A DNA stretch of 64,000 nucleotides, taken from assembly GCF_054482595.1 (NCBI RefSeq), contig NZ_CM137008.1; one strand, given 5' to 3'. Shown here one piece after another: positions 30,079 through 64,000 of this stretch (position 1 is the stretch's first letter; the number at the start of each line of letters is the position of its first letter). A program made the position numbers and the translations under genes. The notes below the pieces were generated by a model. That model searched no databases. It saw only the letters and a program-made list of their open reading frames with translations, and was not told the origin of the DNA.

Positions 30079-30180
30079 AGTGGCTCCATTATTTATAGGG
30101 GCTAATGACGCCTGATAATTGCGTTACTTCCTGATGGATTAAGTTGGGGGTAATTTATCCCAGAGAGGTCATAAAGACTC

Positions 30181-48677: not shown

Positions 48678-49035
48678 CTCTTTACTGCGCCGCTTAACTT
48701 TTGAGTCTGTTTGGCTCTATAAGGACTGTCTCGCCGCCACGGAAATTTTCGGACGCAATGCCTGAGAGGGAGCTTCCAAACCTAGGACTTCCACTTTCCC
48801 GCACCCAACTTATCCGGCTGCTTTTAACCGCGAACACGTTGAAGGTTAACAACGTTTAGTTCATGTCTGACTGAAAGGAACGGCCACCGACAAACACCGT
48901 TAGAGAAGGTATGTAAGCTGATAGTTGAGTTGCTATATATACAGTTATTAAGAGAACTGCACCCAGACCAGCAGGAATGCAGCTTCTTTCCTGCTGATTG
49001 TCACTTTTTTCTGGAATAAGGGAACGAGCGGTAGT

Positions 49036-50052
49036 TCAAACGTGGAGACGACGTAAGGCGCCCTTGACGGCGTTTTGCAGATCGCTAACAACCGCCAGAT
49101 GAGAGCTTTCTTTCCGCAGACGCTTGTCACCGTTGACCATCATCCAGCTACGTTTATCCCTACGCCCGATGTTATTGAATGAATGCAAGCCGCGCTCGGC
49201 TGTTGCGTCGTTCACCCTACGAACTGCGTTGATAGCGGTAAACCTGAACATATCACCGTTAGCCATCATTTCAGGCTCGATTGGTTTGCGAAATTTGAAC
49301 AGGTGAGCGAGGGTTTCAAATCGAAAGTGTTGTATGTCGTTAAGGCGGTTAAGAGAGTAGTGAGTGAGCACAGCACCTTTTAACGTGACTTCAACACGAG
49401 CGCGTTGCTTTTCTACAGGTAGTTTCTGACCGTCGTCAGTGCATTTGTGGTAGACATGCCACGAGATCTTGTCCCACTTGTTACCCGTTCTCAGGTTCCA
49501 TTCAGGATTGATACGAACATCCTGAACATCAAGGAAAACATTTTGTCGAGTTACGGGATTGTATTGTCGGGCTTTGGTTCCCGGACTGAACAGGGAACTT
49601 TGAAGCCGATAGGTCATCGCATTTGTAGCGGTAATCGACCGGGCTTTGTGCCAGAAATCGCAGAAGACTTCGACCCCCACAATTTGCGGCTCGTAAGCAA
49701 ATGGGAAACGATTTTGTAATTGGTCGAGGGCGGCTTCCAACTTCCCGTTATGGTTTGCTAGTAGATCGCGAAAGCGAATCCGAAAAACGTTGTTAGTGTT
49801 GCTTATGATGGGCTTTACCCAAGGTTTGACGTAGTTACCGGGACGGTGTTCGCACGATGCCAATTTTGAGATACGTAGACCGCAGGGTTCAACCCAGAGT
49901 TTTAATCCGGTGATTTTAAGTAATTCTTCCTGAACATAGCGATGCTGGGTCAGTCTAGATAAGCTGATCGTTATGTCCAGCCAGTCGATCCCGGCTGAGA
50001 CTTTAAAGAATTTGCGGTCTGCTTCGGCAGCTTTGCATTCTCGACTCTTCAT
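49036..50052 (-). CDS. Hypothetical protein, possibly YagK/YfjJ-like (inovirus Gp2-type replication-associated)
   Basis: 338-aa ORF; N-terminal GIDWLDITIS motif and placement beside integrase/AlpA-like genes as in CP4-57-type elements; assignment from memory only. Confidence 0.4.
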   Translation of the reverse strand: MKSRECKAAEADRKFFKVSAGIDWLDITISLSRLTQHRYVQEELLKITGLKLWVEPCGLRISKLASCEHRPGNYVKPWVKPIISNTNNVFRIRFRDLLANHNGKLEAALDQLQNRFPFAYEPQIVGVEVFCDFWHKARSITATNAMTYRLQSSLFSPGTKARQYNPVTRQNVFLDVQDVRINPEWNLRTGNKWDKISWHVYHKCTDDGQKLPVEKQRARVEVTLKGAVLTHYSLNRLNDIQHFRFETLAHLFKFRKPIEPEMMANGDMFRFTAINAVRRVNDATAERGLHSFNNIGRRDKRSWMMVNGDKRLRKESSHLAVVSDLQNAVKGALRRLHV

Positions 50053-50173
50053 AGTGTGGCCTTATTGAACGGAATCTCAAACTGCCATCAGGGTAATTCG
50101 AACTGAGCAGGTTTGAGAGCATTCGAGCAAGGTAGCATAACAATTTTAAGATAAAAACCTTACTTATCAACTA

Positions 50174-50198
50174 ACTGCGTTCATATTCTGAACGCAGT
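50174..50198. promoter_or_regulatory. Perfect 10-bp inverted repeat (candidate operator) in divergent intergenic region
   Basis: actgcgttca-tattc-tgaacgcagt between the YfjJ-like gene and the serine recombinase gene. Confidence 0.4.
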
Positions 50199-50355
50199 AG
50201 TCGTTGTTAACTTAAAGGCATGAGAACACTGTCGTTTTTCATATACAAAGGGTGCTTCGGCTCACCTGTAGCGATTCAGAGAAAGCACATGGTGCTATCT
50301 GGTAAAGCCGTCAGCCAGCCTAATATGTCTTACCACTTTTGAGCGCCAACAAACG

Positions 50356-50457
50356 ACCGTTTTCTGGCACCTTTCGATCGCACACTTTCACACTGTTGGA
50401 AAATTAGCCTTGGCTTTTCTGGCAGGCCATCCTAAGTTGACACCGTTTTCTGGCAGG
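50356..50457 (+). repeat. Three direct repeats of TTTTCTGGCA upstream of the serine recombinase gene
   Basis: ccgttttctggcac (50358-50370), gcttttctggcagg (50413-50426), ccgttttctggcagg (50444-50457); 20-125 bp upstream of the recombinase start. Confidence 0.45.
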
Positions 50458-50477
50458 GGCCGGAAGAGGAGATGACT

Positions 50478-51041
50478 ATGGCGATTTTTGGCTACGGGCG
50501 CGTTTCGACATCGCAGCAGGATACTGAGAACCAGCGTTTGGAACTTGAGCAAGCTGGATGGACTTTCGACTTTTGGTTTACTGATGTTGTTAGCGGGAAG
50601 GTTCCTGCGCTGCAACGCAAAGCGTTTTCCGAAATGCTCAGCAAAATCCGCGATGGTGAAACGCTGGTTGTTGCCAAACTCGACCGACTGGGACGCGATG
50701 CGATTGATGTTCTCCAGACTGTCAGGGCGATGGCCGAGCGTAATATCAAGGTCATTGTCCACCAGCTTGGCACAACGGATCTCTCCTCTGCTGCCGGTAA
50801 ACTTCTGTTGTCGATGCTGTCAGCAGTTGCGGAGATGGAACGTGACCTACTGATTGAGAGGACCCATGCGGGTTTGTTGCGGGCAAAAGCTGAAGGCAAG
50901 AAGCTGGGAAGACCGTCGAAAATCGCCCCAGAAGTCCATAGGCTGATTATTGAGAAAAAGAATAATGGAGCCAGTGTCAGCGCACTAGCGAGGGAGTATG
51001 GCGTTTCCAGAGCGACTATAGCTGCACTATTAGATTATTAG
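50478..51041 (+). CDS. Serine recombinase (resolvase / DNA-invertase family)
   Basis: Supplied ORF 50472-51041; N-terminal GYGRVSTSQQ catalytic-Ser motif, KLDRLGRD, C-terminal HTH; second ATG at 50478 has better SD spacing. Confidence 0.88.
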   Translation: MAIFGYGRVSTSQQDTENQRLELEQAGWTFDFWFTDVVSGKVPALQRKAFSEMLSKIRDGETLVVAKLDRLGRDAIDVLQTVRAMAERNIKVIVHQLGTTDLSSAAGKLLLSMLSAVAEMERDLLIERTHAGLLRAKAEGKKLGRPSKIAPEVHRLIIEKKNNGASVSALAREYGVSRATIAALLDY

Positions 51042-51127
51042 CAATTTAGATTTTTATTACAACTTCTGAATGGCAAGAGTGCTAATCTTGGAGAGTAAAA
51101 GCCCCCAAATGGGGGCTAAGTTAATAA

Positions 51128-52903
51128 CTAATAATGGACGTTTGCGATGAATTGAGGGAGAAGTTCTTTAAAATCATCTCTATACATATCCATATCACTC
51201 TGGAAACGAGAGATTATTTCTGTAATTTCTTTGCTTTTGGATAATCTTCCTGCTGTAGCTGGTTCTAACAGTGCAGATCTTGTTAATACCCTTTTTATTA
51301 CAGGGATCCATAACTCCTTCGCATTTTCTCTATTGACGCCATCTTTGAAGGATAATGAATATTTATTAGGTATCGCTGAACCTAATATTATTTCCAATAT
51401 GCTTGCTATAGCATGAATCATTAACAGTGATACGCCAGGTTGGGTCAATAGCTTATGTTTAATAGTATCTATTTCAGGAAGCTGGTTATGCCTAAATTGT
51501 TCATTAAAATCCGATTTTATCTGGCTTATAGCTTCATTTAAAGAATAGACAAAGATAATATGACCTAGAGTAATTGTATCATCAAAAGCCTTTTTATAGA
51601 GATCCTCATCATCCCAAATATCTTTTTTTCGATGATATGCACTTGTAGGATGAGCATGAAAAGCGATCAGGATTTGTGCAACTGTATCCGTTGGTAATAA
51701 AATTCTTTTTTGAGCCGGAGTTAACACTTGGCGAAGGCCACCTGTATATAAAGCTTCCTTATTTTTCTCGAAATCCTTTCTTAATCTTTTTTGTATAGAA
51801 TCACTGGAGCGAAAATCTGAGCGCAAGACCTTGTTTTGTGAATTATTCGCTAGAGTGATTTCATTAATTAGTTCGGGATTATTAACTCTTATGAACCTAA
51901 TTGCAACTCTTAGCGTATCATCTGGATCTTTCCCTAAATTTGAAATACTACCAGTAGTTTGAGCACCATTGACAATAGAAATACCAGTAACACTTTTAAT
52001 TTGACCGAGTGTTTTGGATTCGTCAATGAAATCAATTTCAAAATCATGGACTAAGGCAGTGATTCCGTTATTAAATACAAAGAAATTTCCTGGGTGTGTT
52101 TTAGCCGTGTTTTGTATTTCATTATTTATTGAGAGGTCTTTTTTATTACTTCCTAAATAAGACCTTACATTAGCGCTGAATAGTTTATCTTCACCGTAGC
52201 TATTATATAGTTCTTTAATAAATTTCCCTGGCATAAGGGTAGAAAATGAGGCCCAGTTTTCATTAGAGTTTTGATAAAAGCCATGCATACCAGTCAGCGA
52301 TATTTTATCTGATATCAAAATTGGACTGTGTTGAGAGTTATATAATTCATCAAGTGAACTTAAACCCATTTGCTTGGAGCTTATTCTCAGGTTATCAATA
52401 TGATAAATTGAGTTTAATTTGTCCATAATTGAACGCCCAATCGAATGTAAAGGTTTCTCACATTCTGGTGTTTCAGGGCAGTTATGAACAAACCATACAT
52501 TTATTTTCTCAATTTCATTATTTCTTAAAGCATCTCTTGCATCTTTTACCTGATCCCTTATCCTCAGAGGTATATTCTCTATATCAGCGGAAAGCAACGC
52601 GGTTTCTGCATAAGCTGTTTCTTGGGCCTTAGACGGCTTGGCCCCTTGAGGTCGAAATATAGTAGATTGATAAGATTGTATAAGATATATTTGTTTGCTT
52701 TCTCTATCGGTCATTAATATGTCTATATTTTCATCATCTCCCCCTTCAGTTATTATGTCGGGAGCTATCAATTCAATGCTGTCTATATTGTTATGTAACT
52801 CTATTGCATATAATGCACAATTTAAATTACCATATTTTTCTAGATCTTTTCTCTGTTGCAATGCTGACCAGAAAGAACTATCTGAAAGCTGTGTATATGT
52901 CAT
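51128..52903 (-). CDS. Hypothetical 591-aa protein, candidate abortive-infection (AIPR-like) phage-defence protein
   Basis: Long uninterrupted ORF in a visibly AT-rich segment with A/T-rich codon usage unlike flanking core genes; no Walker A motif; family assignment by size/context only. Confidence 0.6.
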   Translation of the reverse strand: MTYTQLSDSSFWSALQQRKDLEKYGNLNCALYAIELHNNIDSIELIAPDIITEGGDDENIDILMTDRESKQIYLIQSYQSTIFRPQGAKPSKAQETAYAETALLSADIENIPLRIRDQVKDARDALRNNEIEKINVWFVHNCPETPECEKPLHSIGRSIMDKLNSIYHIDNLRISSKQMGLSSLDELYNSQHSPILISDKISLTGMHGFYQNSNENWASFSTLMPGKFIKELYNSYGEDKLFSANVRSYLGSNKKDLSINNEIQNTAKTHPGNFFVFNNGITALVHDFEIDFIDESKTLGQIKSVTGISIVNGAQTTGSISNLGKDPDDTLRVAIRFIRVNNPELINEITLANNSQNKVLRSDFRSSDSIQKRLRKDFEKNKEALYTGGLRQVLTPAQKRILLPTDTVAQILIAFHAHPTSAYHRKKDIWDDEDLYKKAFDDTITLGHIIFVYSLNEAISQIKSDFNEQFRHNQLPEIDTIKHKLLTQPGVSLLMIHAIASILEIILGSAIPNKYSLSFKDGVNRENAKELWIPVIKRVLTRSALLEPATAGRLSKSKEITEIISRFQSDMDMYRDDFKELLPQFIANVHY

Positions 52904-53053
52904 GATAAAACCCTTTTTATTAATATGTAAATTTTATCTCATTCTATCTAAAATCATTTTTTTATATCTAATGATATAACATTAAATGTATGTGAAATAT
53001 TTAATGGTATCTGCTATGCCTTTGTTTATTAAAGCACAGTCTTCAAATCAGGG

Positions 53054-53161
53054 TCAACCAAACCACAGTATATTATATCCAACTATTGGATGTCGGTAAG
53101 CGACTAAGGCTAGTTGAGGTAACACATAAATAATACAATACCTTAGGGTATTGAGTTTCAT
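53054..53161 (-). CDS. Possible small ORF (35 aa, hydrophobic) with strong Shine-Dalgarno
   Basis: Minus-strand GAAGGAGGGACAGG-ATG...TGA encoding [35 protein letters not shown]; lies between IS2 and the 591-aa gene; several rare codons, so may be non-coding. Confidence 0.2.
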
Positions 53162-53289
53162 CCTGTCCCTCCTTCTACGAACGTATCCACGCAGCGACTA
53201 GACTGGCCCCCTGAATCTCCAGACAACCAATATCACTTATTTAAGTGATAGTCTTAATACTAGTTTTTAGACTAGTCATTGGAGAGCAG

Positions 53290-53655
53290 ATGATTGATGT
53301 CTTAGGACCGGAGAAACGCAGACGGCGTACTACACAGGAAAAGATCGCTATTGTTCAGCAGAGTTTTGAACCGGGAATGACAGTCTCCCTTGTTGCCCGG
53401 CAACACGGTGTGGCAGCCAGCCAGTTATTTCTCTGGCGCAAGCAATACCAGGAGGGAAGTCTTACTGCTGTGGCCGCAGGAGAACAGGTCGTTCCTGCCT
53501 CTGAACTTGCTGCCGCCATGAAGCAGATTAAAGAACTCCAGCGCCTGCTCGGCAAAAAAACGATGGAAAATGAACTCCTTAAAGAAGCCGTTGAATACGG
53601 GCGTGCAAAAAAGTGGATAGCGCACGCGCCCTTATTGCCCGGGGATGGGGAGTAA
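53290..53655 (+). CDS. insC: IS2 transposase OrfA
   Basis: [41 protein letters not shown], matches remembered IS2 InsC. Confidence 0.95.
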
Positions 53656-54518
53656 GCTTAGTCAGCCGTTGTCTCCGGGTGTCGCGTGCGCAGTTGCACG
53701 TCATTCTCAGACGAACCGATGACTGGAAAGATGGTCGCCGCAGCCGTCACTCAGATGATACGGATGTGCTTCTCCGTATACACCATGTTATCGGAGAGCT
53801 GCCCACATATGGTTATCGTCGGGTATGGGCGCTGCTTCGCAGACAGGCCGAACTTGATGGTATGCCTGCGATCAATGCCAAACGTATTTACCGGATCATG
53901 CGCCAGAATGCGCTGTTGCTTGAGCGAAAACCCGCTGTACCGCCATCGAAACGGGCACATACCGGCAGAGTGGCTGTGAAAGAAAGTAATCAGCGATGGT
54001 GCTCTGACGGGTTCGAGTTCCGCTGTGATAACGGAGAAAAACTGCGAGTCACGTTCGCGCTGGACTGCTGTGACCGTGAGGCACTGCACTGGGCGGTCAC
54101 TACGGGCGGCTTCAACAGTGAAACAGTACAGGACGTCATGCTGGGAGCGGTGGAACGCCGTTTCGGCAACGAGCTTCCGGCGTCTCCAGTAGAGTGGCTG
54201 ACGGATAATGGTTCATGCTACCGGGCTAATGAAACACGGCAGTTTGCCCGGATGTTGGGGCTTGAACCGAAGAACACGGCGGTGCGGAGTCCGGAGAGTA
54301 ACGGCATAGCAGAGAGCTTCGTGAAAACGATAAAGCGTGACTACATCAGTGTCATGCCCAAACCAGACGGGTTAACGGCAGCAAAGAACCTTGCAGAGGC
54401 ATTCGAGCATTATAACGAATGGCATCCGCATAGTGCACTGGGTTATCGCTCGCCACGGGAATATCTACGGCAGCAAGCCAGTAATGGGTTAAGTGATAAC
54501 AGGTGTCTGGAAATATAG
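53613..54518 (+). CDS. insD: IS2 transposase OrfB (DDE integrase domain)
   Basis: 301-aa ORF overlapping insC in the -1 frame, matches remembered IS2 InsD. Confidence 0.95.
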
Positions 54519-54640
54519 GGGCAAATCCAGCGACTTCTTGAGCTTCGCCTGAAAAATTTGAAACCATGCGCTTGATGAGAATTGCATCTAGGTTACATTT
54601 GTGGGAACAGATCGTTGCTAGGGTAGCTATAAAATAAAAA

Positions 54641-55393
54641 TTATAATTTATTCATGCAGTTAGTGTAAATGAATGCCGCTGAAACCTGAGCATCTTGCTT
54701 GGGGTGTTCATATACATAGTCAACGAAGGTTTTATAGAGCGCAATCATCTGGGGTGTGACTTCGGACTTGCCATTCATATTATCGAGACGCTGATAATAG
54801 TCTGCTTTGGTCATTCCTCCGTTTCGGCCTTTGGTTACGTTTGCGGTGAATTGTGCTATACCCATACACATTTGATCTTTATGGTTATTCGTTTTATCCG
54901 GGTGAAGAGCACCTTCCAACACTTTATCACCGCTGATGGCATGTTGCGCCCACGCTGAATTGTTGGCGATAAACTTTTTGGAGCCGGTGGCAATACCGTA
55001 TTCGATGCGAATGCCATTATCGTGATAGCTACCGTCAGCATCTTTAGTCGCTAACTTTAGAGATATGCGGCAACCGGGGAGCGTTTTGTGTTCTTGCACC
55101 GAAGCAATAACGGTGTCTGTATCGCAATCAGCAAAGCTGTATGTGGGATTAACATAGGTATTCGTTTTGAGTAGTAACCCGGTTAAGCCGTTTTTATAGC
55201 CTTTTGCCGGTAGGGTTTTAAAGGCGTTACGGTCGCCATCCTTAATCGCTTCCCGAAACTGATCCATCCCAATGCGGATTGCCAGTTGATCGATGCTCTC
55301 GGCTGCATATGATGCAGATGATGTAGCGATTAATATGATGCTCAGCAAAAACTTGGCTGGAAAAACGGGTTTAATAATTCGTGTTTGTGACAT
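54641..55393 (-). CDS. Secreted protein of unknown function (signal peptide)
   Basis: Supplied ORF 54641-55492; probable start MSQTRIIKPVFPAKFLLSIILIATSSASYAAE (55393) with AAGGA SD; predicted signal peptide cleavage near SYA-AE; several Cys. Confidence 0.6.
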   Translation of the reverse strand: MSQTRIIKPVFPAKFLLSIILIATSSASYAAESIDQLAIRIGMDQFREAIKDGDRNAFKTLPAKGYKNGLTGLLLKTNTYVNPTYSFADCDTDTVIASVQEHKTLPGCRISLKLATKDADGSYHDNGIRIEYGIATGSKKFIANNSAWAQHAISGDKVLEGALHPDKTNNHKDQMCMGIAQFTANVTKGRNGGMTKADYYQRLDNMNGKSEVTPQMIALYKTFVDYVYEHPKQDAQVSAAFIYTNCMNKL

Positions 55394-55510
55394 GTTGTTA
55401 TCCTTCAGAATCCACCCCTGCGGTGATTTTAATCGCATGATAACGCTTTGATTCAAAATGTCACTATTGGAGCGTGGCTCTTTAGTGGACATCTAATCAA
55501 ATTCAGGAGG

Positions 55511-55975
55511 ATGAAAAAGACCCTTCGATTTTTATTTGGACAACGTGTTAAGGCTCTACGTATAGCCGCCGGAATGAGCCAGGAAGCGTTTGCTGATCGG
55601 TGTGGATTTGCGCGTAGCTATATGAGCCGCATTGAACGTGGTTGCTCTAACGCGTCTCTTGATGCGATTGAGGTATTGGCTGAAGCTTTAAGTGTTGAGC
55701 CTTGGCAATTGTTAGCGTCCGATTCTTCCGAAGATAGCGCCCCGGAATTGTTGGTTCCATACGCGGCCGATGGCTCGTGCTTTCATCCCGGACTAGCGAG
55801 CACGCGCGATGGTTCGTTTGGTGTAGGTGATAAAGCCGCTCAGAAGCGTTTTGGCTCGTTTTTAGAAGCATTAGAGTATCTACGTAACATGAAGACAGCA
55901 AAATGGCGCAGACCCAATTCTAGCGGCAACTGGGGTATCGTATCAGCGGTTCGTTGGGACAAGCTGAGAAAGTAG
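55511..55975 (+). CDS. HTH (XRE-family) transcriptional regulator with C-terminal domain of unknown function
   Basis: Supplied ORF 55448-55975; start at 55511 (AGGAGG + ATG); N-terminal LRIAAGMSQEAFADRCGFARSYMSRIERG helix-turn-helix; about 80-aa uncharacterised C-terminal extension. Confidence 0.75.
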   Translation: MKKTLRFLFGQRVKALRIAAGMSQEAFADRCGFARSYMSRIERGCSNASLDAIEVLAEALSVEPWQLLASDSSEDSAPELLVPYAADGSCFHPGLASTRDGSFGVGDKAAQKRFGSFLEALEYLRNMKTAKWRRPNSSGNWGIVSAVRWDKLRK

Positions 55976-56150
55976 CTCAGGTGTAAGTTTCAGATTTTAA
56001 ATTACTGAATAAATAAACAGCTACCACATGAGGTGAATGGCCGCACGTTTTATCTGGCACTGATAACTATCAGCATTCCTAAAACACCAAAATACGGGTG
56101 CGTTACGTAGGCGTTACAGTGGCGTTTCACTTCAGCAATGGAGAGTGCTT

Positions 56151-57023
56151 TTGAAAAATAATCATTTGATATCATATGGTTTCCTAACCTCGCTGAGTGA
56201 TATTGAATTACTGTCGCTTCACTCCGAAATTTTAACGCAGTTGCGTTTTAGAGGTGTCATTCGCACCAAGAATAATCCTGTTGGTGACTATGCTGAATGG
56301 CTGGTTTCTAATGCACTGGGTATGACTCTTCTCAGTAATTCGTCGGCGGGTGCTGATGCCATTGATGCTGATGGCCTGAAAGTGCAGATCAAAGCTAGGA
56401 GAGTTACGCCGGATAATCCTTCCCGGCAGCTTAGTGCCTTGCGTAACTATGAGGCAGCCGAATTTGATTATTTAATCGCGGTTATTTTCGATGAGACTTA
56501 CAACATTCTTGATGCTTACAAAATCCCACATGAAGTAATACGAGATTATGCACGGCATAGTGACCACGTTAACGCACATATCGTTAACCTCAAGGGCGCG
56601 ATTCTTACTGATCCCCGAGTTAGTTCCATCAAAGAAGACTTGATTGTCAGGAGTTCGGCTTCAGTCAATGAAGCGGCTATGCAAACCCTTCCACCCGAAC
56701 CTATGGAAGAGGTTTTGAATCAACCAGAGAAGATAACGAGTAGTGTTACCTTGGTCAGCCTCCTTAAGGCTATCGGGATGGAGTGCTTTGTAAACTACTA
56801 CCATCATTTTGCCGATTCAAATTTATCAAGCGCTGATATCATTGAGCAAATGCACTCACGTGAGGGTTACACAGAGAAAAGTTGCCGGGGCCGTCTCAGT
56901 AAAGCGCGAAAAGTGATCAGGGATGGTTTAAGTATTGAGGCTTTGACGTTGATCGCTGACTCTGGGCGAATACAAGATTCTGTCAGAAGTGACGCGCTAA
57001 AACTTATCAGCGTTCTGGAGTGA
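56151..57023 (+). CDS. Hypothetical protein with Mrr-like (PD-(D/E)xK) nuclease motif
   Basis: Supplied ORF 56145-57023 (GTG); TTG at 56151 has GGAGAG SD; residues about 47-87 GDYAEWLVSNALGMTLLSNSSAGADAIDADGLKVQIKARRV fit the Mrr-cat pattern (Asp cluster then Q-x-K); C-terminal about 150 aa unassigned. Confidence 0.6.
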   Translation: MKNNHLISYGFLTSLSDIELLSLHSEILTQLRFRGVIRTKNNPVGDYAEWLVSNALGMTLLSNSSAGADAIDADGLKVQIKARRVTPDNPSRQLSALRNYEAAEFDYLIAVIFDETYNILDAYKIPHEVIRDYARHSDHVNAHIVNLKGAILTDPRVSSIKEDLIVRSSASVNEAAMQTLPPEPMEEVLNQPEKITSSVTLVSLLKAIGMECFVNYYHHFADSNLSSADIIEQMHSREGYTEKSCRGRLSKARKVIRDGLSIEALTLIADSGRIQDSVRSDALKLISVLE

Positions 57024-57076
57024 AGCGGTTTGCAAAACGTTGTAGTTCCTCCTACAAAACCCTCCTACAATGCACC

Positions 57077-57539
57077 GGTAATGACTCCAACTTATTGATA
57101 GTGTTTTATGTTCAGATAATGCCCGATGACTTTGTCATGCAGCTCCACCGATTTTGAGAACGACAGCGACTTCCGTCCCAGCCGTGCCAGGTGCTGCCTC
57201 AGATTCAGGTTATGCCGCTCAATTCGCTGCGTATATCGCTTGCTGATTACGTGCAGCTTTCCCTTCAGGCGGGATTCATACAGCGGCCAGCCATCCGTCA
57301 TCCATATCACCACGTCAAAGGGTGACAGCAGGCTCATAAGACGCCCCAGCGTCGCCATAGTGCGTTCACCGAATACGTGCGCAACAACCGTCTTCCGGAG
57401 CCTGTCATACGCGTAAAACAGCCAGCGCTGGCGCGATTTAGCCCCGACGTATCCCCACTGTTCGTCCATTTCCGCGCAGACGATGACGTCACTGCCCGGC
57501 TGTATGCGCGAGGTTACCGACTGCGGCCTGAGTTTTTTA
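57077..57539 (-). mobile_element. IS1 remnant (about 463 bp, truncated by IS26)
   Basis: Begins with IS1 terminal repeat GGTAATGACTCCAACTTATTGATAGTG; encodes the C-terminal part of InsB (supplied ORF 57092-57586); IS1 sequence stops at the IS26 end. Confidence 0.9.
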
Positions 57540-58359
57540 GGCACTGTTGCAAAGTTAGCGATGAGGCAGCCTTTTGTCTTATTCAAAGGCCTTACATTTC
57601 AAAAACTCTGCTTACCAGGCGCATTTCGCCCAGGGGATCACCATAATAAAATGCTGAGGCCTGGCCTTTGCGTAGTGCACGCATCACCTCAATACCTTTG
57701 ATGGTGGCGTAAGCCGTCTTCATGGATTTAAATCCCAGCGTGGCGCCGATTATCCGTTTCAGTTTGCCATGATCGCATTCAATCACGTTGTTCCGGTACT
57801 TAATCTGTCGGTGTTCAACGTCAGACGGGCACCGGCCTTCGCGTTTGAGCAGAGCAAGCGCGCGACCATAGGCGGGCGCTTTATCCGTGTTGATGAATCG
57901 CGGGATCTGCCACTTCTTCACGTTGTTGAGGATTTTACCCAGAAACCGGTATGCAGCTTTGCTGTTACGACGGGAGGAGAGATAAAAATCGACAGTGCGG
58001 CCCCGGCTGTCGACGGCCCGGTACAGATACGCCCAGCGGCCATTGACCTTCACGTAGGTTTCATCCATGTGCCACGGGCAAAGATCGGAAGGGTTACGCC
58101 AGTACCAGCGCAGCCGTTTTTCCATTTCAGGCGCATAACGCTGAACCCAGCGGTAAATCGTGGAGTGATCGACATTCACTCCGCGTTCAGCCAGCATCTC
58201 CTGCAGCTCACGGTAACTGATGCCGTATTTGCAGTACCAGCGTACGGCCCACAGAATGATGTCACGCTGAAAATGCCGGCCTTTGAATGGGTTCATGTGC
58301 AGCTCCATCAGCAAAAGGGGATGATAAGTTTATCACCACCGACTATTTGCAACAGTGCC
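57540..58359 (-). mobile_element. IS26 (IS6 family), copy 1
   Basis: 820 bp bounded by GGCACTGTTGCAAA terminal inverted repeats (57540 and 58346-58359); carries tnp26. Confidence 0.95.
57592..58296 (-). CDS. tnpA: IS26 transposase Tnp26
   Basis: Supplied ORF 57592-58314; start [31 protein letters not shown] (234 aa). Confidence 0.95.
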
Positions 58360-58461
58360 TCCTTTTTGATAATCTCATGACCAAAATCCCTTAACGTGAG
58401 TTTTCGTTCCACTGAGCGTCAGACCCCGTATAGTGTTTTGCAGTTTAGAGGAGATATCGCG

Positions 58462-59322
58462 ATGCATACGCGGAAGGCAATAACGGAGGCGCTTCAAAAA
58501 CTCGGAGTCCAAACCGGTGACCTCTTGATGGTGCATGCCTCACTTAAAGCGATTGGTCCGGTCGAAGGAGGAGCGGAGACGGTCGTTGCCGCGTTACGCT
58601 CCGCGGTTGGGCCGACTGGCACTGTGATGGGATACGCGTCGTGGGACCGATCACCCTACGAGGAGACTCTGAATGGCGCTCGGCTGGATGACGAAGCCCG
58701 CCGTACCTGGCTGCCGTTCGATCCCGCAACAGCCGGGACTTACCGTGGGTTCGGCCTGCTGAATCAATTTCTGGTTCAAGCCCCCGGCGCGCGGCGCAGC
58801 GCGCACCCCGATGCATCGATGGTCGCGGTTGGTCCGCTGGCTGAAACGCTGACGGAGCCTCACGAACTCGGTCACGCCTTGGGGGAAGGATCGCCCGTCG
58901 AGCGGTTCGTTCGCCTTGGCGGGAAGGCCCTGCTGTTGGGTGCGCCGCTAAACTCCGTTACCGCATTGCACTACGCCGAGGCGGTTGCCGATATCCCCAA
59001 CAAACGGTGGGTGACGTATGAGATGCCGATGCTTGGAAGAGACGGTGAAGTCGCCTGGAAAACGGCATCGGATTACGATTCAAACGGCATTCTCGATTGC
59101 TTTGCTATCGAAGGAAAGCCGGATGCGGTTGAAACTATAGCAAATGCTTACGTGAAGCTCGGTCGCCATCGAGAAGGTGTCGTGGGCTTTGCTCAGTGCT
59201 ACCTGTTCGACGCGCAGGACATCGTGACGTTCGGCGTCACCTATCTTGAGAAGCATTTCGGAACCACTCCGATCGTGCCTCCGCACGAGGCCGTCGAGCG
59301 CTCTTGCGAGCCTTCAGGTTAG
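58462..59322 (+). CDS. aac(3)-II: Aminoglycoside N(3)-acetyltransferase, AAC(3)-II type (gentamicin/tobramycin resistance)
   Basis: Supplied ORF 58396-59322; from MHTRKAITEALQKLGVQTGDLLMVHASLKAIGPVEGG matches remembered AAC(3)-IIa/IId (286 aa); sub-variant not resolvable by eye. Confidence 0.9.
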   Translation: MHTRKAITEALQKLGVQTGDLLMVHASLKAIGPVEGGAETVVAALRSAVGPTGTVMGYASWDRSPYEETLNGARLDDEARRTWLPFDPATAGTYRGFGLLNQFLVQAPGARRSAHPDASMVAVGPLAETLTEPHELGHALGEGSPVERFVRLGGKALLLGAPLNSVTALHYAEAVADIPNKRWVTYEMPMLGRDGEVAWKTASDYDSNGILDCFAIEGKPDAVETIANAYVKLGRHREGVVGFAQCYLFDAQDIVTFGVTYLEKHFGTTPIVPPHEAVERSCEPSG

Positions 59323-59334
59323 AGGCCGTCGACA

Positions 59335-59547
59335 ATGATAATCTGGATCAACGGACCTTTCGGCGCCGGAAAGACGACGCTCGCTAAGCGGCTGCGCGAT
59401 CGGCGTTCCAAATCGCTGATCTTTGACCCCGAGGAAATCGGGTTCGTGGTGAAAGAAACGGTCCCCATGCCAGCGAGCGGAGACTATCAGGATCTCCCCT
59501 TGTGGAGGGGACTTACGATCGCGGCGGTCAGGGAGATTCGAAGGAAT
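59335..59547 (+). pseudogene. tmrB: Truncated tunicamycin-resistance gene tmrB (5' part only, cut by IS26)
   Basis: MIIWINGPFGAGKTTLAKRL P-loop N-terminus; reading frame runs into the IS26 terminal repeat at 59548. Confidence 0.8.
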
Positions 59548-60367
59548 GGCACTGTTGCAAATAGTCGGTGGTGATAAACTTATCATCCCCTTTTGCTGAT
59601 GGAGCTGCACATGAACCCATTCAAAGGCCGGCATTTTCAGCGTGACATCATTCTGTGGGCCGTACGCTGGTACTGCAAATACGGCATCAGTTACCGTGAG
59701 CTGCAGGAGATGCTGGCTGAACGCGGAGTGAATGTCGATCACTCCACGATTTACCGCTGGGTTCAGCGTTATGCGCCTGAAATGGAAAAACGGCTGCGCT
59801 GGTACTGGCGTAACCCTTCCGATCTTTGCCCGTGGCACATGGATGAAACCTACGTGAAGGTCAATGGCCGCTGGGCGTATCTGTACCGGGCCGTCGACAG
59901 CCGGGGCCGCACTGTCGATTTTTATCTCTCCTCCCGTCGTAACAGCAAAGCTGCATACCGGTTTCTGGGTAAAATCCTCAACAACGTGAAGAAGTGGCAG
60001 ATCCCGCGATTCATCAACACGGATAAAGCGCCCGCCTATGGTCGCGCGCTTGCTCTGCTCAAACGCGAAGGCCGGTGCCCGTCTGACGTTGAACACCGAC
60101 AGATTAAGTACCGGAACAACGTGATTGAATGCGATCATGGCAAACTGAAACGGATAATCGGCGCCACGCTGGGATTTAAATCCATGAAGACGGCTTACGC
60201 CACCATCAAAGGTATTGAGGTGATGCGTGCACTACGCAAAGGCCAGGCCTCAGCATTTTATTATGGTGATCCCCTGGGCGAAATGCGCCTGGTAAGCAGA
60301 GTTTTTGAAATGTAAGGCCTTTGAATAAGACAAAAGGCTGCCTCATCGCTAACTTTGCAACAGTGCC
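59548..60367 (+). mobile_element. IS26 (IS6 family), copy 2, inverted relative to copy 1
   Basis: 820 bp bounded by GGCACTGTTGCAAA repeats (59548 and 60354-60367); transposase protein identical to copy 1. Confidence 0.95.
59611..60315 (+). CDS. tnpA: IS26 transposase Tnp26
   Basis: Supplied ORF 59593-60315, same protein as 57592-58296 on the opposite strand. Confidence 0.95.
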   Translation: MNPFKGRHFQRDIILWAVRWYCKYGISYRELQEMLAERGVNVDHSTIYRWVQRYAPEMEKRLRWYWRNPSDLCPWHMDETYVKVNGRWAYLYRAVDSRGRTVDFYLSSRRNSKAAYRFLGKILNNVKKWQIPRFINTDKAPAYGRALALLKREGRCPSDVEHRQIKYRNNVIECDHGKLKRIIGATLGFKSMKTAYATIKGIEVMRALRKGQASAFYYGDPLGEMRLVSRVFEM

Positions 60368-60436
60368 GGATTGAATATAACCGACGTGACTGTTACATTT
60401 AGGTGGCTAAACCCGTCAAGCCCTCAGGAGTGAATC

Positions 60437-61342
60437 ATGACCGTAGTCACGACCGCCGATACCTCCCAACTGTACGCACTTGCAGCCCGACATGGGCTCA
60501 AGCTCCATGGCCCGCTGACTGTCAATGAGCTTGGGCTCGACTATAGGATCGTGATCGCCACCGTCGACGATGGACGTCGGTGGGTGCTGCGCATCCCGCG
60601 CCGAGCCGAGGTAAGCGCGAAGGTCGAACCAGAGGCGCGGGTGCTGGCAATGCTCAAGAATCGCCTGCCGTTCGCGGTGCCGGACTGGCGCGTGGCCAAC
60701 GCCGAGCTCGTTGCCTATCCCATGCTCGAAGACTCGACTGCGATGGTCATCCAGCCTGGTTCGTCCACGCCCGACTGGGTCGTGCCGCAGGACTCGGAGG
60801 TCTTCGCGGAGAGCTTCGCGACCGCGCTCGCCGCCCTGCATGCCGTCCCCATTTCCGCCGCCGTGGATGCGGGGATGCTCATCCGTACACCGACGCAGGC
60901 CCGTCAGAAGGTGGCCGACGACGTTGACCGCGTCCGACGCGAGTTCGTGGTGAACGACAAGCGCCTCCACCGGTGGCAGCGCTGGCTCGACGACGATTCG
61001 TCGTGGCCAGATTTCTCCGTGGTGGTGCATGGCGATCTCTACGTGGGCCATGTGCTCATCGACAACACGGAGCGCGTCAGCGGGATGATCGACTGGAGCG
61101 AGGCCCGCGTTGATGACCCTGCCATCGACATGGCCGCGCACCTTATGGTCTTTGGTGAAGAGGGGCTCGCGAAGCTCCTCCTCACGTATGAAGCGGCCGG
61201 TGGCCGGGTGTGGCCGCGGCTCGCCCACCACATCGCGGAGCGCCTTGCGTTCGGGGCGGTCACCTACGCACTCTTCGCCCTCGACTCGGGTAACGAAGAG
61301 TACCTCGCTGCGGCGAAGGCGCAGCTCGCCGCAGCGGAATGA
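60437..61342 (+). CDS. mph(A): Macrolide 2'-phosphotransferase Mph(A)
   Basis: 301-aa ORF MTVVTTADTSQLYALAARHGLKLHGPLTVNELGLDYRIV matches remembered Mph(A); high-GC segment. Confidence 0.93.
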   Translation: MTVVTTADTSQLYALAARHGLKLHGPLTVNELGLDYRIVIATVDDGRRWVLRIPRRAEVSAKVEPEARVLAMLKNRLPFAVPDWRVANAELVAYPMLEDSTAMVIQPGSSTPDWVVPQDSEVFAESFATALAALHAVPISAAVDAGMLIRTPTQARQKVADDVDRVRREFVVNDKRLHRWQRWLDDDSSWPDFSVVVHGDLYVGHVLIDNTERVSGMIDWSEARVDDPAIDMAAHLMVFGEEGLAKLLLTYEAAGGRVWPRLAHHIAERLAFGAVTYALFALDSGNEEYLAAAKAQLAAAE

Positions 61343-62577
61343 GCGAACGTCGATATAGCCCGCTCGCGACGCTGTTCGCGGCGACCTTTCTCTTCCGGAT
61401 CGGCAACGCGGTGGCGGCCCTCGCGCTTCCATGGTTCGTCCTGTCTCATACAAAGAGCGCGGCCTGGGCGGGCGCCACGGCCGCTAGCAGCGTCATCGCG
61501 ACCATCATCGGCGCGTGGGTTGGTGGTGGCCTCGTCGATCGGTTCGGGCGCGCGCCCGTCGCATTGATCTCGGGTGTGGTGGGCGGCGTGGCCATGGCGA
61601 GCATCCCACTGCTCGATGCCGTTGGCGCCCTCTCGAACACTGGGCTGATCGCTTGCGTGGTGCTCGGTGCCGCGTTCGACGCACCCGGTATGGCCGCGCA
61701 GGACAGTGAGCTGCCCAAACTCGGCCACGTCGCCGGGCTCTCCGTTGAGCGCGTCTCGTCACTGAAAGCGGTGATCGGGAACGTCGCGATTCTAGGTGGC
61801 CCGGCCCTTGGGGGGGCCGCAATCGGCCTGCTTGGCGCTGCGCCAACGCTCGGGCTGACGGCGTTCTGCTCCGTCCTTGCAGGTCTGCTCGGCGCGTGGG
61901 TGCTTCCCGCGCGTGCCGCTCGGACGATGACCACGACGGCGACTCTCTCCATGCGCGCCGGCGTCGCTTTTCTCTGGAGCGAACCCCTGCTGCGCCCTCT
62001 CTTTGGTATAGTGATGATCTTCGTGGGCATCGTTGGCGCCAACGGCAGCGTCATCATGCCTGCGCTGTTTGTAGATGCAGGACGCCAAGTAGCAGAGCTC
62101 GGGCTGTTCTCCTCAATGATGGGGGCTGGTGGTCTCCTTGGCATTGCCATTCATGCGTCGGTCGGCGCCCGGATATCAGCGCAGAACTGGCTGGCGGTGG
62201 CATTTTGTGGCTCTGCGGTGGGCTCGCTTCTGCTTTCACAGTTGCCAGGCGTGCCGGTGCTGATGTTGTTGGGCGCGCTCGTGGGACTGCTGACCGGCTC
62301 AGTCTCTCCCATTCTCAACGCTGCCATCTACAACCGCACGCCGCCAGAACTTCTCGGCCGGGTACTCGGCACGGTCTCGGCGGTGATGCTGTCAGCCTCG
62401 CCCATGGTTATGCTTGCGGCCGGCGCGTTTGTCGACCTTGCTGGTCCGCTCCCTGGCCTCGTTGTATCGGCCGTGTTTGCGGGGCTCGTGGCTCTACTCT
62501 CGCTCCGTCTTCAATTTGCTACAATGGCGGCGGCAGCCACAGCCTCCGCCCCAACCCATACAGAAGGTGAACACTGA
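61339..62577 (+). CDS. mrx(A): MFS-type hydrophobic protein Mrx(A)
   Basis: 412-aa polytopic membrane ORF overlapping the mph(A) stop by 4 nt, as in the mph(A) operon. Confidence 0.88.
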   Translation: MSERRYSPLATLFAATFLFRIGNAVAALALPWFVLSHTKSAAWAGATAASSVIATIIGAWVGGGLVDRFGRAPVALISGVVGGVAMASIPLLDAVGALSNTGLIACVVLGAAFDAPGMAAQDSELPKLGHVAGLSVERVSSLKAVIGNVAILGGPALGGAAIGLLGAAPTLGLTAFCSVLAGLLGAWVLPARAARTMTTTATLSMRAGVAFLWSEPLLRPLFGIVMIFVGIVGANGSVIMPALFVDAGRQVAELGLFSSMMGAGGLLGIAIHASVGARISAQNWLAVAFCGSAVGSLLLSQLPGVPVLMLLGALVGLLTGSVSPILNAAIYNRTPPELLGRVLGTVSAVMLSASPMVMLAAGAFVDLAGPLPGLVVSAVFAGLVALLSLRLQFATMAAAATASAPTHTEGEH

Positions 62578-63161
62578 TGCCCCGCCCCAAGCTCAAGTCC
62601 GATGACGAGGTACTCGAGGCCGCCACCGTAGTGCTGAAGCGTTGCGGTCCCATAGAGTTCACGCTCAGCGGAGTAGCAAAGGAGGTGGGGCTCTCCCGCG
62701 CAGCGTTAATCCAGCGCTTCACCAACCGCGATACGCTGCTGGTGAGGATGATGGAGCGCGGCGTCGAGCAGGTGCGGCATTACCTGAATGCGATACCGAT
62801 AGGCGCAGGGCCGCAAGGGCTCTGGGAATTTTTGCAGGTGCTCGTTCGGAGCATGAACACTCGCAACGACTTCTCGGTGAACTATCTCATCTCCTGGTAC
62901 GAGCTCCAGGTGCCGGAGCTACGCACGCTTGCGATCCAGCGGAACCGCGCGGTGGTGGAGGGGATCCGCAAGCGACTGCCCCCAGGTGCTCCTGCGGCAG
63001 CTGAGTTGCTCCTGCACTCGGTCATCGCTGGCGCGACGATGCAGTGGGCCGTCGATCCGGATGGTGAGCTAGCTGATCATGTGCTGGCTCAGATCGCTGC
63101 CATCCTGTGTTTAATGTTTCCCGAACACGACGATTTCCAACTCCTCCAGGCACATGCGTAA
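62577..63161 (+). CDS. mphR(A): TetR-family repressor MphR(A)
   Basis: 194-aa ORF with N-terminal TetR HTH (FTLSGVAKEVGLSRAALIQRFTNRDTLL); start overlaps the mrx stop. Confidence 0.9.
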   Translation: MPRPKLKSDDEVLEAATVVLKRCGPIEFTLSGVAKEVGLSRAALIQRFTNRDTLLVRMMERGVEQVRHYLNAIPIGAGPQGLWEFLQVLVRSMNTRNDFSVNYLISWYELQVPELRTLAIQRNRAVVEGIRKRLPPGAPAAAELLLHSVIAGATMQWAVDPDGELADHVLAQIAAILCLMFPEHDDFQLLQAHA

Positions 63162-63599
63162 ACGGAGGTGTGCAGAGTCCCTGCGGCAGGCGACGAACAC
63201 GACCGTCGTCGATTAGTACCGGTACGGTCGGTGGTATCGAAGTCTTGATCACCACTCAGGTCTACGGCTTACAAATGGTGACCATCCCGATACTTGCGTC
63301 AGAGCACCGGGCCGATTCTTTGACAGTGAATCACTCCCGTAAGGTTGTGCCGGTGTGGGTGTCCCGGGTCGAGACGATACTCCGCCAATGCGCCCAGCAA
63401 ACAACCTGGCCATCGCAGGTGGTGGGGAGCGGTGTGGCGGATGAGTTGGACAAGTTGGTGTAGCAGCACGAGCACGGCGAGATAACATCGCAGGAGTTCG
63501 ACATGCTCAAGAGACAGCTGATTGCGAATCGCGATGCAGATTCATAACCCGATTGCGGGTTGGCTTCACTCCACCATCACCGAGCAGACTAGCACGGCG

Positions 63600-64000
63600 G
63601 GCTCTGTTGCAAAGATTGGCGGCAGTCAGAGGTAGGCTGTCGCTCTGCGCCGATCAGGCGGCTGCTGCGAAATGGTGGTTGAGCATGCCCATGGCCTCCG
63701 TCAGCGCCGAGGGCCCAATGCCAAAAGCTCTCTCCACAAGGCGCACCTCGCCCCTGATGCCGGGCTGCAGGCACCAGGGGCGAGCCTGTCCTTTGCGCAG
63801 GGCTCGCATGACTTCGAATCCCTTGATCGTGGCATAGGCCGTGGGGATCGATTTGAAACCGCGCACCGGCTTGATCAGTATCTTGAGCTTTCCGTGATCG
63901 GCCTCGATCACGTTATTGAGATACTTCACCTGCCGGTGGGCCGTCTCCCGGTCCAGCTTTCCTTCGCGCTTCAATTCGGTGATCGCTGCACCATAGCTCG
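63600..64000 (-). mobile_element. IS6100 (IS6 family), partial; continues beyond window end
   Basis: Terminal repeat GGCTCTGTTGCAAAGATTGGCGGCAGTCAGAGG at 63600; minus-strand transposase ORF with stop at 63654 and still open at 64000 (IS6-family transposase C-terminus). Confidence 0.85.

Follow-up and report, generated by a model that had tools for sequence, protein, structure and literature searches.

An IS26-bounded aac(3)-IId/truncated tmrB unit with inverted IS26 copies in a chromosomal resistance region of Escherichia coli

In the 64,000-nt stretch of Escherichia coli DNA analysed here (the window; contig NZ_CM137008.1 of RefSeq assembly GCF_054482595.1), the gentamicin resistance gene aac(3)-IId and the first part of tmrB lie between two identical, inverted copies of IS26. 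This unit (57540-60367) is a piece of a large, much-rearranged multi-resistance region of the Tn21/Tn2670 type, with IS1, IS26 and IS6100. Two relatives, strains XH990 and Santai, display all the features of a product of IS26 transposition in trans, a pattern identical to that given by insertion followed by flipping. A three-step history, comprising an IS26 event in tmrB, a deletion that joined the unit to mph(A) and an inversion into IS1, very probably accounts for the arrangement as a whole. The unit is an already sequenced, ordinary product of well-understood IS26 rearrangements and involves no new mechanism.

Anatomy of the inverted IS26 pair and its insert

A repeat search returned a single 820-nt inverted repeat, with arms at 57540-58359 and 59548-60367 that are 100% complementary and 1,188 nt apart. 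A base-by-base script comparison likewise found the two copies to be exact reverse complements, and the initial annotation, which had called them identical and inverted, is confirmed. Both 820-bp elements are IS26 by length, by termini (14-bp ends GGCACTGTTGCAAA on both), by their transposase (a 234-amino-acid ORF of the IS6 family in each, scoring 275.6 bits against NCBIfam transpos_IS6, cut-off 125) and by DNA that is 100% identical to the SM107 copies annotated as IS26 (WP_001067855.1). Copy 1 lies on the minus strand, with its right end (IRR) adjoining an IS1 remnant and its left end (IRL) adjoining the aac(3)-IId leader; copy 2 lies on the plus strand, with IRL adjoining the tmrB remnant and IRR adjoining the mph(A) side. 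In both copies the IRL, on the 5' side of the transposase gene, points inward.

The pair is flanked by GTTTTTTA and GGATTGAA on the outside and by TCCTTTTT and GAAGGAAT on the inside. No 8-bp target duplication was found within the window around either IS26, between the outer flanks or between the inner flanks, in direct or reverse-complement comparison. The outer boundaries, where it had been proposed to look for such duplications, gave a negative result in the window; the informative duplication at IS26, that of GAAGGAAT, becomes visible only once relatives are included. Thus, no step in the history of the unit is provable from the window alone.

The 1,188 bp between the IS26 copies contain an intact aac(3)-IId with its leader, followed by nt 1-213 of tmrB. 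The aac(3)-IId gene (58462-59322, plus strand) encodes an aminoglycoside 3-N-acetyltransferase of 286 amino acids that scores 541.5 bits against NCBIfam AAC_3_II (cut-off 480), and its DNA is identical to the annotated aac(3)-IId (WP_000557454.1). It is a full-length aac(3)-IId allele of the AAC(3)-II family, in agreement with the aac(3)-II gene called at first. AAC(3)-IId gives resistance by acetylating gentamicin and tobramycin at the 3-amino group; by analogy with what is established for the family, the gene in the window is predicted to confer resistance to both drugs. The 102-bp leader (58360-58461, plus strand), read from the sequence, includes at 58390-58427 what we take to be a 38-bp remnant of a terminal inverted repeat of the Tn2/Tn3 type. 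A promoter-like site spans the IS26/leader junction, with a -35 TTTGCA (58346-58351) in the IS26 end and a -10 GATAAT (58368-58373). The hybrid promoter predicted from it is only suggestive, as the promoter scan gave one site against 2.1 expected by chance, and the site was dropped as evidence of expression.

The truncated tmrB (59335-59547, plus strand) comprises nt 1-213 of 543, matches the intact tmrB of strain AR_0013 at every one of these positions and stops exactly at the left end of the second IS26, as had been described. Its last 8 bp (59540-59547) are GAAGGAAT, the IS26 target, which occurs in intact tmrB once only, at nt 206-213. The remnant is a dead gene. It reads through into IS26 to form a 79-amino-acid fusion ORF with its stop at 59574, which is on record in 75 public contigs, all of them from E. 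coli.

Chromosomal setting and the wider resistance region

Positions 1-25000 of the window are core E. coli chromosome: this segment is covered to at least 80% in 5,163 of 5,426 complete E. coli genomes. It is also 100% identical to XH990, THO-010, APEC37, SM107 and Santai, which represent one clone, and five annotated complete chromosomes of this clone have the same resistance region at the glyU-island/ETT2 locus. Santai belongs to ST1011, and its resistance genes have been noted as chromosomally integrated (PMC5039186); this brief statement is the only literature that was found on the chromosomal region in ST1011 or XH990.

The tRNA-Gly(CCC) gene glyU (46182-46255, plus strand), located with ARAGORN, is the chromosomal landmark and the attachment site of an island; in the annotation of XH990, SM107 and Santai, this tRNA gene sits between actS and an integrase. 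The module had been placed in the chromosome next to glyU. Its chromosomal location is borne out by the core segment and by the relatives within the clone, whereas the adjacency is not, since 11.3 kb separate glyU from the module and are occupied by the integrase/defence island and the IS1 remnant. The island (46345-57076), delimited from its ORFs and from PADLOC and NCBIfam matches, contains genes for a tyrosine integrase, a serine recombinase, an AbiU-like AIPR protein, a C-protein-like HTH protein and a DUF6998 protein resembling methyl-directed restriction enzymes. It is collinear with relatives of the clone, including XH990 (L006), apart from an IS2 (53199-54529, plus strand; 1,331 bp) inserted with a 5-bp target duplication, GCGAC, at 53194-53198 and 54530-54534. 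This IS2 was not found in the islands of XH990, SM107 and Santai, where it appears as a gap in BLAST collinearity (L006, L003 and L007, respectively).

The left edge of the resistance region is the IS1 remnant (57077-57539, minus strand), which consists of 463 bp from the IS1 right end with the 3' part of insB and matches, at 100% identity, the initial 463 bp of the full-length IS1 in SM107. IS26 cuts it at position 463. The junction between island and IS1 at 57076/57077 is common to the window, SM107 and Santai.

To the right, the picture of a stand-alone module did not hold: IS26 copy 2 belongs equally to the mph(A) unit, being the IS26 that normally precedes mph(A)-mrx-mphR-IS6100, and the whole lies inside the Tn21/IS1/IS26 region. 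Its IRR meets mph(A) at the widespread junction GGATTGAATATA, also present in seven of the compared loci (L001 to L006 and L008). The macrolide resistance operon mph(A)-mrx(A)-mphR(A) (60437-61342, 61339-62577 and 62577-63161, plus strand) is 100% identical to the annotated SM107 operon, and Mph(A) scores 685 bits in NCBIfam (cut-off 550). Beyond it lie the first approximately 400 bp of IS6100 (63600-64000, minus strand), which begins with the end GGCTCTGTTGCAAA at 63600 and continues past the window; it was recognized from repeat family D6, a transposase C-terminal ORF (63654-63974) and identity to the SM107 region annotated as IS6100. By its junction and gene order, this segment is an IS26-mph(A)-mrx(A)-mphR(A)-IS6100 unit, identical to those annotated in L001, L002 and L003.

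Related genomes and the proposed order of IS26 events

Copies of the exact unit were sought with the insert and no more than a 20-bp stretch of IS26 at either end, a query that excludes the variant of plasmid pNH25.2 described below. Among 5,426 complete E. coli genomes, the unit with both junctions was found in eight chromosomes of the clone (XH990, Santai, SM107, APEC37, W619, TUM18780, TUM18530 and DETEC-C31) and on one plasmid, pB25FEP-2; it was found in none of 72,556 PLSDB plasmids. All carriers share with the window the 1,188-bp insert and both IS26 left-end junctions (TCCTTTTT... and ...GAAGGAAT). In SM107 and pB25FEP-2 the unit is fused to mph(A), as in the window, and SM107 shares the 6,461 bp of 57540-64000 at 100% identity. 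The sequence outside the left IS26 differs: the window has the IS1 remnant and the glyU island, whereas XH990 and Santai have the tmrB 3' half, SM107 a truncated chrA, APEC37 araE and pB25FEP-2 a fragment of a sul3 region. Relative to glyU, the block in the window is inverted with respect to XH990 and SM107. At least eight distinct flank combinations surround the unit in the relatives, each explicable by single-IS26 events.

The informative comparison is with XH990 and Santai, where the half of tmrB that the window lacks adjoins the other IS26 copy and the 8-bp target GAAGGAAT is present twice. XH990 reads IS26(-)|ATTCCTTC-tmrB5'(reversed)...aac(3)(reversed)|IS26(+)|GAAGGAAT-tmrB3'. The 3' piece equals nt 206-543 of intact tmrB, and the two halves together rebuild the whole gene. 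It follows from these halves and from the duplicated GAAGGAAT that one IS26 event in tmrB made the inverted pair, and the suggestion in the initial annotation that inversion by IS26, and not a simple translocatable unit, lies behind the pair is supported by the same evidence. An inverted IS26 pair, an inverted segment between the copies and a target duplicated in inverted orientation make up the pattern that He and colleagues (2015, mBio; PMC4471558) published as the mark of IS26 intramolecular transposition in trans. The product described by He and colleagues has two target copies, one per IS26, whereas a single copy adjoins the unit in the window; later IS26 events would have separated the tmrB halves in this lineage.

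The starting point was the usual IS26-aac(3)-IId-tmrB arrangement. In the first step, which is documented by the tmrB halves, a single IS26 event struck nt 206-213 of tmrB, with GAAGGAAT as the target. Most simply, this would be intramolecular copy-in transposition in trans, by which the 1,188-bp segment would be inverted and a second, inverted IS26 left behind. The same structure could also have been reached in two steps, by ordinary IS26 insertion into tmrB (cointegrate formation and resolution) and subsequent flipping of the 1,188-bp segment by homologous recombination. Its end products would be identical to those of the one-step route, and the XH990 and tmrB data fit it equally. Further, blocks around the unit occur in both orientations within the clone (SM107 versus APEC37 relative to chrA, and L019 versus XH990 relative to mph(A)), which indicates that flipping or re-inversion does happen. 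However, this route needs two events where one is enough, He and colleagues favour the one-step reading in analogous cases (PMC4471558), and the un-flipped intermediate, with IS26 in tmrB and collinear halves, was seen in none of the relatives examined. We therefore regard the two-step origin as rather unlikely.

After the single event in tmrB, the relatives suggest a second step in which a segment between direct IS26 copies, a mercury-resistance module, would have been lost. The mph(A)-side IS26 and the tmrB-5'-side IS26 of XH990 are in direct orientation. Such a loss would have fused the unit with the IS26 that precedes mph(A)-mrx-mphR-IS6100, as in SM107, L021 and pB25FEP-2; the order in L021 is tmrB3'-IS26-aac(3)-tmrB remnant-IS26-mph(A).

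In the third step, the IS26 beside the aac(3)-IId leader would have attacked the IS1 at the island edge, with GTTTTTTA as the target, and the whole block would have been inverted, leaving aac(3)-IId and mph(A) pointing away from glyU. This step was reproduced in silico: one simulated IS26 inversion into IS1 on SM107 (L003) equals the window from 57077 to 64000 at 6,924 of 6,924 bases. An inversion is required because, relative to glyU, aac(3)-IId and mph(A) point the other way from the window in XH990, SM107 and, judged from gene order, L021, and a simple IS26 deletion in cis as the source of the IS1|IS26 junction was rejected on this orientation evidence. The third step would also leave a reciprocal junction, ...CGCCATTTAAAAAAC|GGCACTGTTGCAAATAGTCGG, at which the rest of IS1, by catA1, meets the IS26 left end. 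If the inversion was local, this junction, carrying TAAAAAAC, would accompany it at a position beyond the window.

The third step is weakened because the IS1(463)|IS26 junction recurs elsewhere. Plasmid pTE_T100_1 and a plasmid-like contig both have the identical junction, each with a different sequence outside IS1, and on pYLMB51b a junction 2 bp shorter is found. The junction may have been imported by homologous recombination, or the site may be an IS26 hot spot. In a broader form of import, the IS26-aac(3)-IId-tmrB remnant-IS26-mph(A) block, the IS1(463)|IS26 junction or both would have formed on plasmids and reached the chromosome through its resident IS1 and IS26 copies, either by homologous recombination or by targeted conservative cointegration mediated by IS26. 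This would suit the occurrence of the junction on pTE_T100_1, an IncFIA plasmid, and on contig CAXVGT010000004.1, which differ beyond IS1, as well as the identical two-IS26 unit fused to mph(A) on pB25FEP-2; the wider architecture is common on plasmids. Nevertheless, the exact unit is absent from the PLSDB plasmids searched, and the eight chromosomes of one clone that have it, several with the reciprocal tmrB half in cis, point to chromosomal formation. The junction IS26 adjoins genes other than aac(3)-IId on pTE_T100_1 (aph(3')-Ia) and on the contig, and the pYLMB51b junction, 2 bp away, suggests repeated independent hits at a run of T residues. Import is thus an unlikely source of the arrangement. 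An assembly artefact, in which a plasmid-borne IS26-flanked segment was misjoined to the chromosome through repeated IS copies, is highly improbable. In its favour, misjoins are well known to arise at elements such as IS26 (820 bp, present at least twice here), IS1 and IS2, and the island-IS1 remnant-IS26-aac(3)-IId arrangement was matched in 0 of 5,426 complete genomes (no exact match with a 27-bp IS26 arm). Against it, misjoins arise inside repeats and create no new junctions at exact IS termini, and IS1(463)|IS26 has the precision of a transposition-type junction. The resistance region also occupies this locus in several complete chromosomes of the clone, and one standard event turns the SM107 arrangement into that of the window base for base.

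Beyond the three-step history, it is conceivable, as a tentative proposal, that the inverted unit ending at tmrB nt 213 was born in the chromosome of this clone rather than on a plasmid and was later exported to plasmids such as pB25FEP-2. A corollary of such a birth is the suggestion that the T-run at IS1 positions 456-463 is a recurrent IS26 target. If true, the chromosomal resistance region would be a workshop that builds IS26-bounded modules and returns them to the plasmid pool.

Mobility, significance and comparison with known systems

A pseudo-compound transposon or translocatable unit is by definition bounded by IS26 copies in direct orientation, or consists of one IS26 and an adjoining segment that can excise as a circle (Harmer and Hall, 2021; PMC7885326, with the references cited there). 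The unit in the window is neither, as its copies are inverted with both left ends inward. It is not a classical compound transposon of the Tn5/Tn10 type either, since its outer flanks, GTTTTTTA and GGATTGAA, mismatch both directly and as reverse complements. With its IS26 copies inverted, the 2.8-kb unit has no means of excising or moving as a single piece. Recombination between them does no more than turn the 1,188-bp segment around, and for the unit to move further, other IS26 copies in direct orientation or the formation of a cointegrate are needed.

With genes for the predicted gentamicin and macrolide resistance fixed stably in the chromosome, plasmid loss would not remove the resistance, and E. 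coli of the clone with this region has been found in poultry, pigs, ducks and humans. The practical value of the finding is limited. The tmrB-213|IS26 junction or the 79-amino-acid fusion ORF could serve as a handy short-read marker for the resistance region of the clone, and the region offers a worked example of how relatives allow the order of IS26 events to be reconstructed from a window that holds no target duplications at IS26.

Among known systems, pseudo-compound transposons and translocatable units such as Tn4352 and the TnMB1860 of ST131 chromosomes, the latter carrying aac(3)-IIe with tmrB (PMC10591226), resemble the unit as IS26-bounded resistance genes that also occur in chromosomes. 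Structures of this type have direct IS26 copies, unlike the inverted copies of the window. The ancestral IS26-aac(3)-IId-tmrB-...-ISCfr1-blaTEM-1 arrangement, known, for example, from the chromosome of E. coli AR_0013 and from many plasmids, has the same left junction as the window, IS26 IRL|TCCTTTTTGATA, and its aac(3)-IId and tmrB are identical up to nt 213; in contrast, its tmrB is intact (543 nt) and is followed by no second IS26.

A parallel variant with the same genes is found on the Klebsiella pneumoniae plasmid pNH25.2 (CP024876), with the order of IS26-aac(3)-IId-truncated tmrB-IS26-mph(A)-mrx-mphR-IS6100, the IS26 left ends inward and an unchanged IS26-mph(A) junction. Its insert, however, is 1,335 bp, with a Tn2-end leader 67 bp longer and a tmrB remnant of 293 nt, and it is flanked by GTTTACTC... 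and ...AGGCGGAT rather than by the flanks of the window. The fusion ORF of this type is present in 235 contigs from many Gammaproteobacteria, and the variant is common on Klebsiella plasmids. The initial annotation had held that the module is normally plasmid-borne; this holds for the parallel variant with its other cut points only, the exact unit being found in 0 of 72,556 PLSDB plasmids. As the cut points of the pNH25.2-type variant are unlike those of the window, the two are of independent origin.

The IS26 pair and its enclosed genes

A repeat search of the window revealed a single outstanding inverted repeat, with 820-nt arms at 57540-58359 and 59548-60367 that are 100% complementary and separated by 1,188 nt. 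These arms are two copies of IS26, with the transposase of the left copy on the minus strand and that of the right copy on the plus strand, so that the IRL of both faces inward. A script comparison found the two copies to be exact reverse complements of each other. Each is bounded by 14-bp ends (GGCACTGTTGCAAA) and encodes a single transposase of 234 aa, which scored 275.6 bits against the NCBIfam IS6-family model (cut-off 125). At the DNA level, both match copies annotated as IS26 (WP_001067855.1) in complete genomes with 100% identity.

The 1,188-bp insert begins with a 102-bp leader, followed by an intact aac(3)-IId gene (58462-59322; 286 aa) and a tmrB remnant (59335-59547). The aac(3)-IId product scored 541.5 bits on the AAC_3_II profile (cut-off 480), and its DNA is identical to the gene annotated WP_000557454.1. 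From what is known of its family, AAC(3)-IId is expected to acetylate, and so inactivate, gentamicin and tobramycin. The tmrB remnant is identical to nt 1-213 of the 543-nt intact gene and stops precisely at the IS26 end, its reading frame continuing into IS26 as a 79-aa fusion ORF. It keeps the P-loop, but is probably non-functional because 110 of 180 residues are missing. Thus, the proposal in the initial annotation that two identical, opposite IS26 copies bracket a gentamicin-resistance gene, with tmrB cut exactly at the second IS26 end, was borne out to the base.

Within the leader lies what we take to be a 38-bp Tn2/Tn3-type terminal inverted repeat (58390-58427), which would place aac(3)-IId just outside a Tn2 end truncated by IS26. 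Overlapping the boundary between IS26 and the leader is a promoter-like site, with its -35 (TTTGCA) within the IS26 end and its -10 (GATAAT) 16 nt downstream; this one site is no more than expected by chance and is only a lead. IS26 mobilises DNA through cointegrate formation, and the structures that move with it have directly oriented copies at their boundaries (PMC7885326). With its IS26 copies inverted, the 2.8-kb unit does not qualify as a translocatable unit or as a pseudo-compound transposon, and no duplication indicating compound-transposon movement was present at its outer flanks in the window. Recombination across the inverted pair can do no more than reverse the insert.

Chromosomal setting at the glyU island

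To the right, the plus-strand IS26 adjoins GGATTGAATATA, followed by mph(A)-mrx(A)-mphR(A) (60437-63161) and by IS6100, which starts at 63600 and runs to the window end. This IS26-mph(A) junction is widespread, being present in every comparison locus carrying mph(A). Because the right copy forms it, one IS26 is common to both units. To the left, IS26 truncates an IS1 copy, of which 463 bp remain (57077-57539); this IS1 borders an 11-kb island (46345-57076) that is integrated beside glyU (46182-46255). The module had been described as lying next to glyU; the island and the IS1 remnant lie between.

The island encodes a 647-aa tyrosine integrase, a serine recombinase, an AbiU-like AIPR protein (51128-52903; PADLOC AbiU, 1.7e-29), a C-protein-like HTH regulator (55448-55975) and a DUF6998 protein (56145-57023; PADLOC methyl-directed type II restriction enzyme model, E = 5e-70), and looks like a small phage-defence island. 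A 1,331-bp IS2 (53199-54529; 5-bp target duplication GCGAC) interrupts it between the AIPR gene and the next island gene. As this IS2 is missing from the relatives XH990, SM107 and Santai, it serves as a genome-specific marker.

Of 5,426 complete E. coli genomes, 5,163 contain window positions 1-25000 (recJ, lysS, xdhD, ygfT and others) at ≥80% coverage, nearly always on the chromosome. The segment is 100% identical in one piece in XH990, THO-010, APEC37, W619, SM107, Santai and the TUM strains, which also share the glyU island. The glyU-island/ETT2 locus of XH990, SM107, Santai and APEC37 is occupied by an extensive resistance region of IS1/IS26/Tn21 type. Its genes include catA1, those of a class 1 integron (dfrA12-aadA2), sul1, chrA, mph(A), aac(3)-IId and blaTEM-1. 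Resistance genes of Santai (ST1011) have already been noted as chromosomally integrated (PMC5039186). Further, the island/IS1 junction (57076/57077) is identical in SM107 and Santai. Relatives with the same locus and junction make a misjoined plasmid contig very unlikely, and the chromosomal location given in the initial annotation stands. The feature is real and chromosomal. It represents a single piece of a resistance region that is specific to the clone and has been scrambled by IS26, and whose history is readable from relatives.

Origin of the inverted pair and its junctions

The 8-bp IS26 target duplications suggested for the outer boundaries were not found around the IS26 copies inside the window. 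The relatives are more informative. XH990 contains, from the left, truncated Tn3, IS26(-), ATTCCTTC, the reversed 5' part of tmrB, reversed aac(3)-IId, IS26(+), GAAGGAAT and the 3' part of tmrB, and, further on, ISCfr1 and blaTEM-1; Santai shares this arrangement. The 3' piece in XH990 corresponds to nt 206-543 of intact tmrB, in which GAAGGAAT occurs once (nt 206-213). In both strains, the 8-bp target is duplicated in inverted orientation, one copy per IS26, and the segment between is inverted. This combination of an inverted IS pair, inverted segment and inverted target duplication is characteristic of intramolecular copy-in transposition of IS26 in trans (He et al. 2015, PMC4471558). Such transposition at tmrB nt 206-213 would have produced the inverted segment and the second IS26. 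The same product would result if IS26 had inserted in the ordinary way and the inverted copies had then recombined, and the two routes are inseparable. The split tmrB and duplicated target indicate that the original suggestion of IS26-mediated inversion, rather than a simple translocatable unit, was essentially right.

In XH990, a mercury-resistance module lies between two IS26 copies in direct orientation, one beside mph(A) and the other beside the tmrB 5' part. Loss of this module between the direct copies would create the order tmrB3'-IS26-aac(3)-IId-tmrB remnant-IS26-mph(A), which is seen exactly in a 5.2-Mb contig (L021). The unit-mph(A) fusion also occurs in SM107, which is 100% identical to window 57540-64000 (6,461 bp), and in plasmid pB25FEP-2. 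In XH990, in SM107 and, judging by gene order, in L021, the aac(3)-IId and mph(A) genes are directed toward glyU; in the window they are directed away from it. An inversion is therefore needed to form the IS1-IS26 junction, and the opposite orientation rules out a deletion as its source. One IS26 trans event was simulated on the SM107 locus (L003), from the IS26 at 29355-30174 into the target GTTTTTTA (16741-16748) in the boundary IS1; the product matched window 57077-64000 at 6,924 of 6,924 bases. Attack on the boundary IS1 in trans could thus have inverted the block as in the window, and the model predicts a reciprocal junction, of CGCCATTTAAAAAAC with GGCACTGTTGCAAATAGTCGG, beyond the window.

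Import of the left junction, instead of local formation, is a live rival. The junction (GAGTTTTTTA followed by GGCACTG; left side at 57532-57539) was compared across loci L011-L013, and P0016, a 164-aa ORF specific to it, occurs in public data. The exact junction is absent from all 5,426 complete E. coli genomes; the identical one is found in the IncFIA plasmid pTE_T100_1 (MW574940) and a 90-kb plasmid-like contig (CAXVGT010000004.1). In both, the sequence outside IS1 and the genes beyond IS26 are unlike those of the window, and the three junction-bearing IS1 copies occupy three different locations. In pYLMB51b, the junction is 2 bp shorter. The IS1 T-run may be a recurrent IS26 target or hot spot, or the junction may have spread by homologous recombination through IS1 and IS26. 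Overall, local formation appears more likely than import.

Related rearrangements and distribution of the unit

Several other rearrangements are evident in related genomes. SM107 (L003 12306-16998) and Santai (L007 21039-25731) contain an IS1 intramolecular inversion with a 9-bp duplication, in which the AIPR gene is split and the DUF6998-HTH segment flipped between two inverted IS1 copies; the window (52474-52482 region) has the uninverted state. In the APEC37 chromosome, a 49-bp IS26 left-end fragment (L009 10834-10883) separates a complete IS26 from the aac(3)-IId leader, apparently the result of one IS26 inserting into another's end. The IS26-chrA junctions of SM107 (L003 30174, AACATAAGTGCG) and APEC37 (L009 12891, CCAGAACATAAGTG) are 4 bp apart, although the chrA truncations look alike. 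In another relative (L022, GCA_030541955.1; 8258-13353), the two-IS26 aac(3)-IId unit directly adjoins the island integrase and most of the island is missing, a further deletion brought about here by IS26. In Santai, TUM18780, TUM18530, DETEC-C31 and 88COLEC, parts of the resistance region are found 0.35 to >3 Mb away from the glyU island; such distances imply chromosomal rearrangements on a megabase scale, probably between copies of IS26 or IS1.

Distribution was assessed with the 1,188-bp insert plus just 20 bp of IS26 per side, so that full coverage needs both junctions. Among complete E. coli genomes, the exact unit occurs in nine records: plasmid pB25FEP-2 and eight chromosomes (XH990, TUM18780, TUM18530, W619, DETEC-C31, Santai, SM107 and APEC37), all eight with the glyU island. 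It was absent from all 72,556 PLSDB plasmids. The 79-aa fusion ORF is present on 75 contigs, all from E. coli, with at least eight flank combinations among ten contexts read. The variant in K. pneumoniae pNH25.2 differs in its cut points, with a 1,335-bp insert, a 293-nt tmrB remnant and 67 bp more of the Tn2-end leader sequence. This variant is very common, its 114-aa fusion ORF occurring on 235 contigs from many Gammaproteobacteria. The different cut points imply that the inverted IS26-aac(3)-IId-truncated tmrB-IS26-mph(A) architecture arose at least twice. This architecture is a familiar one; genomes already in public databases contain the unit with 100% identity, and its formation follows well-established IS26 behaviour.
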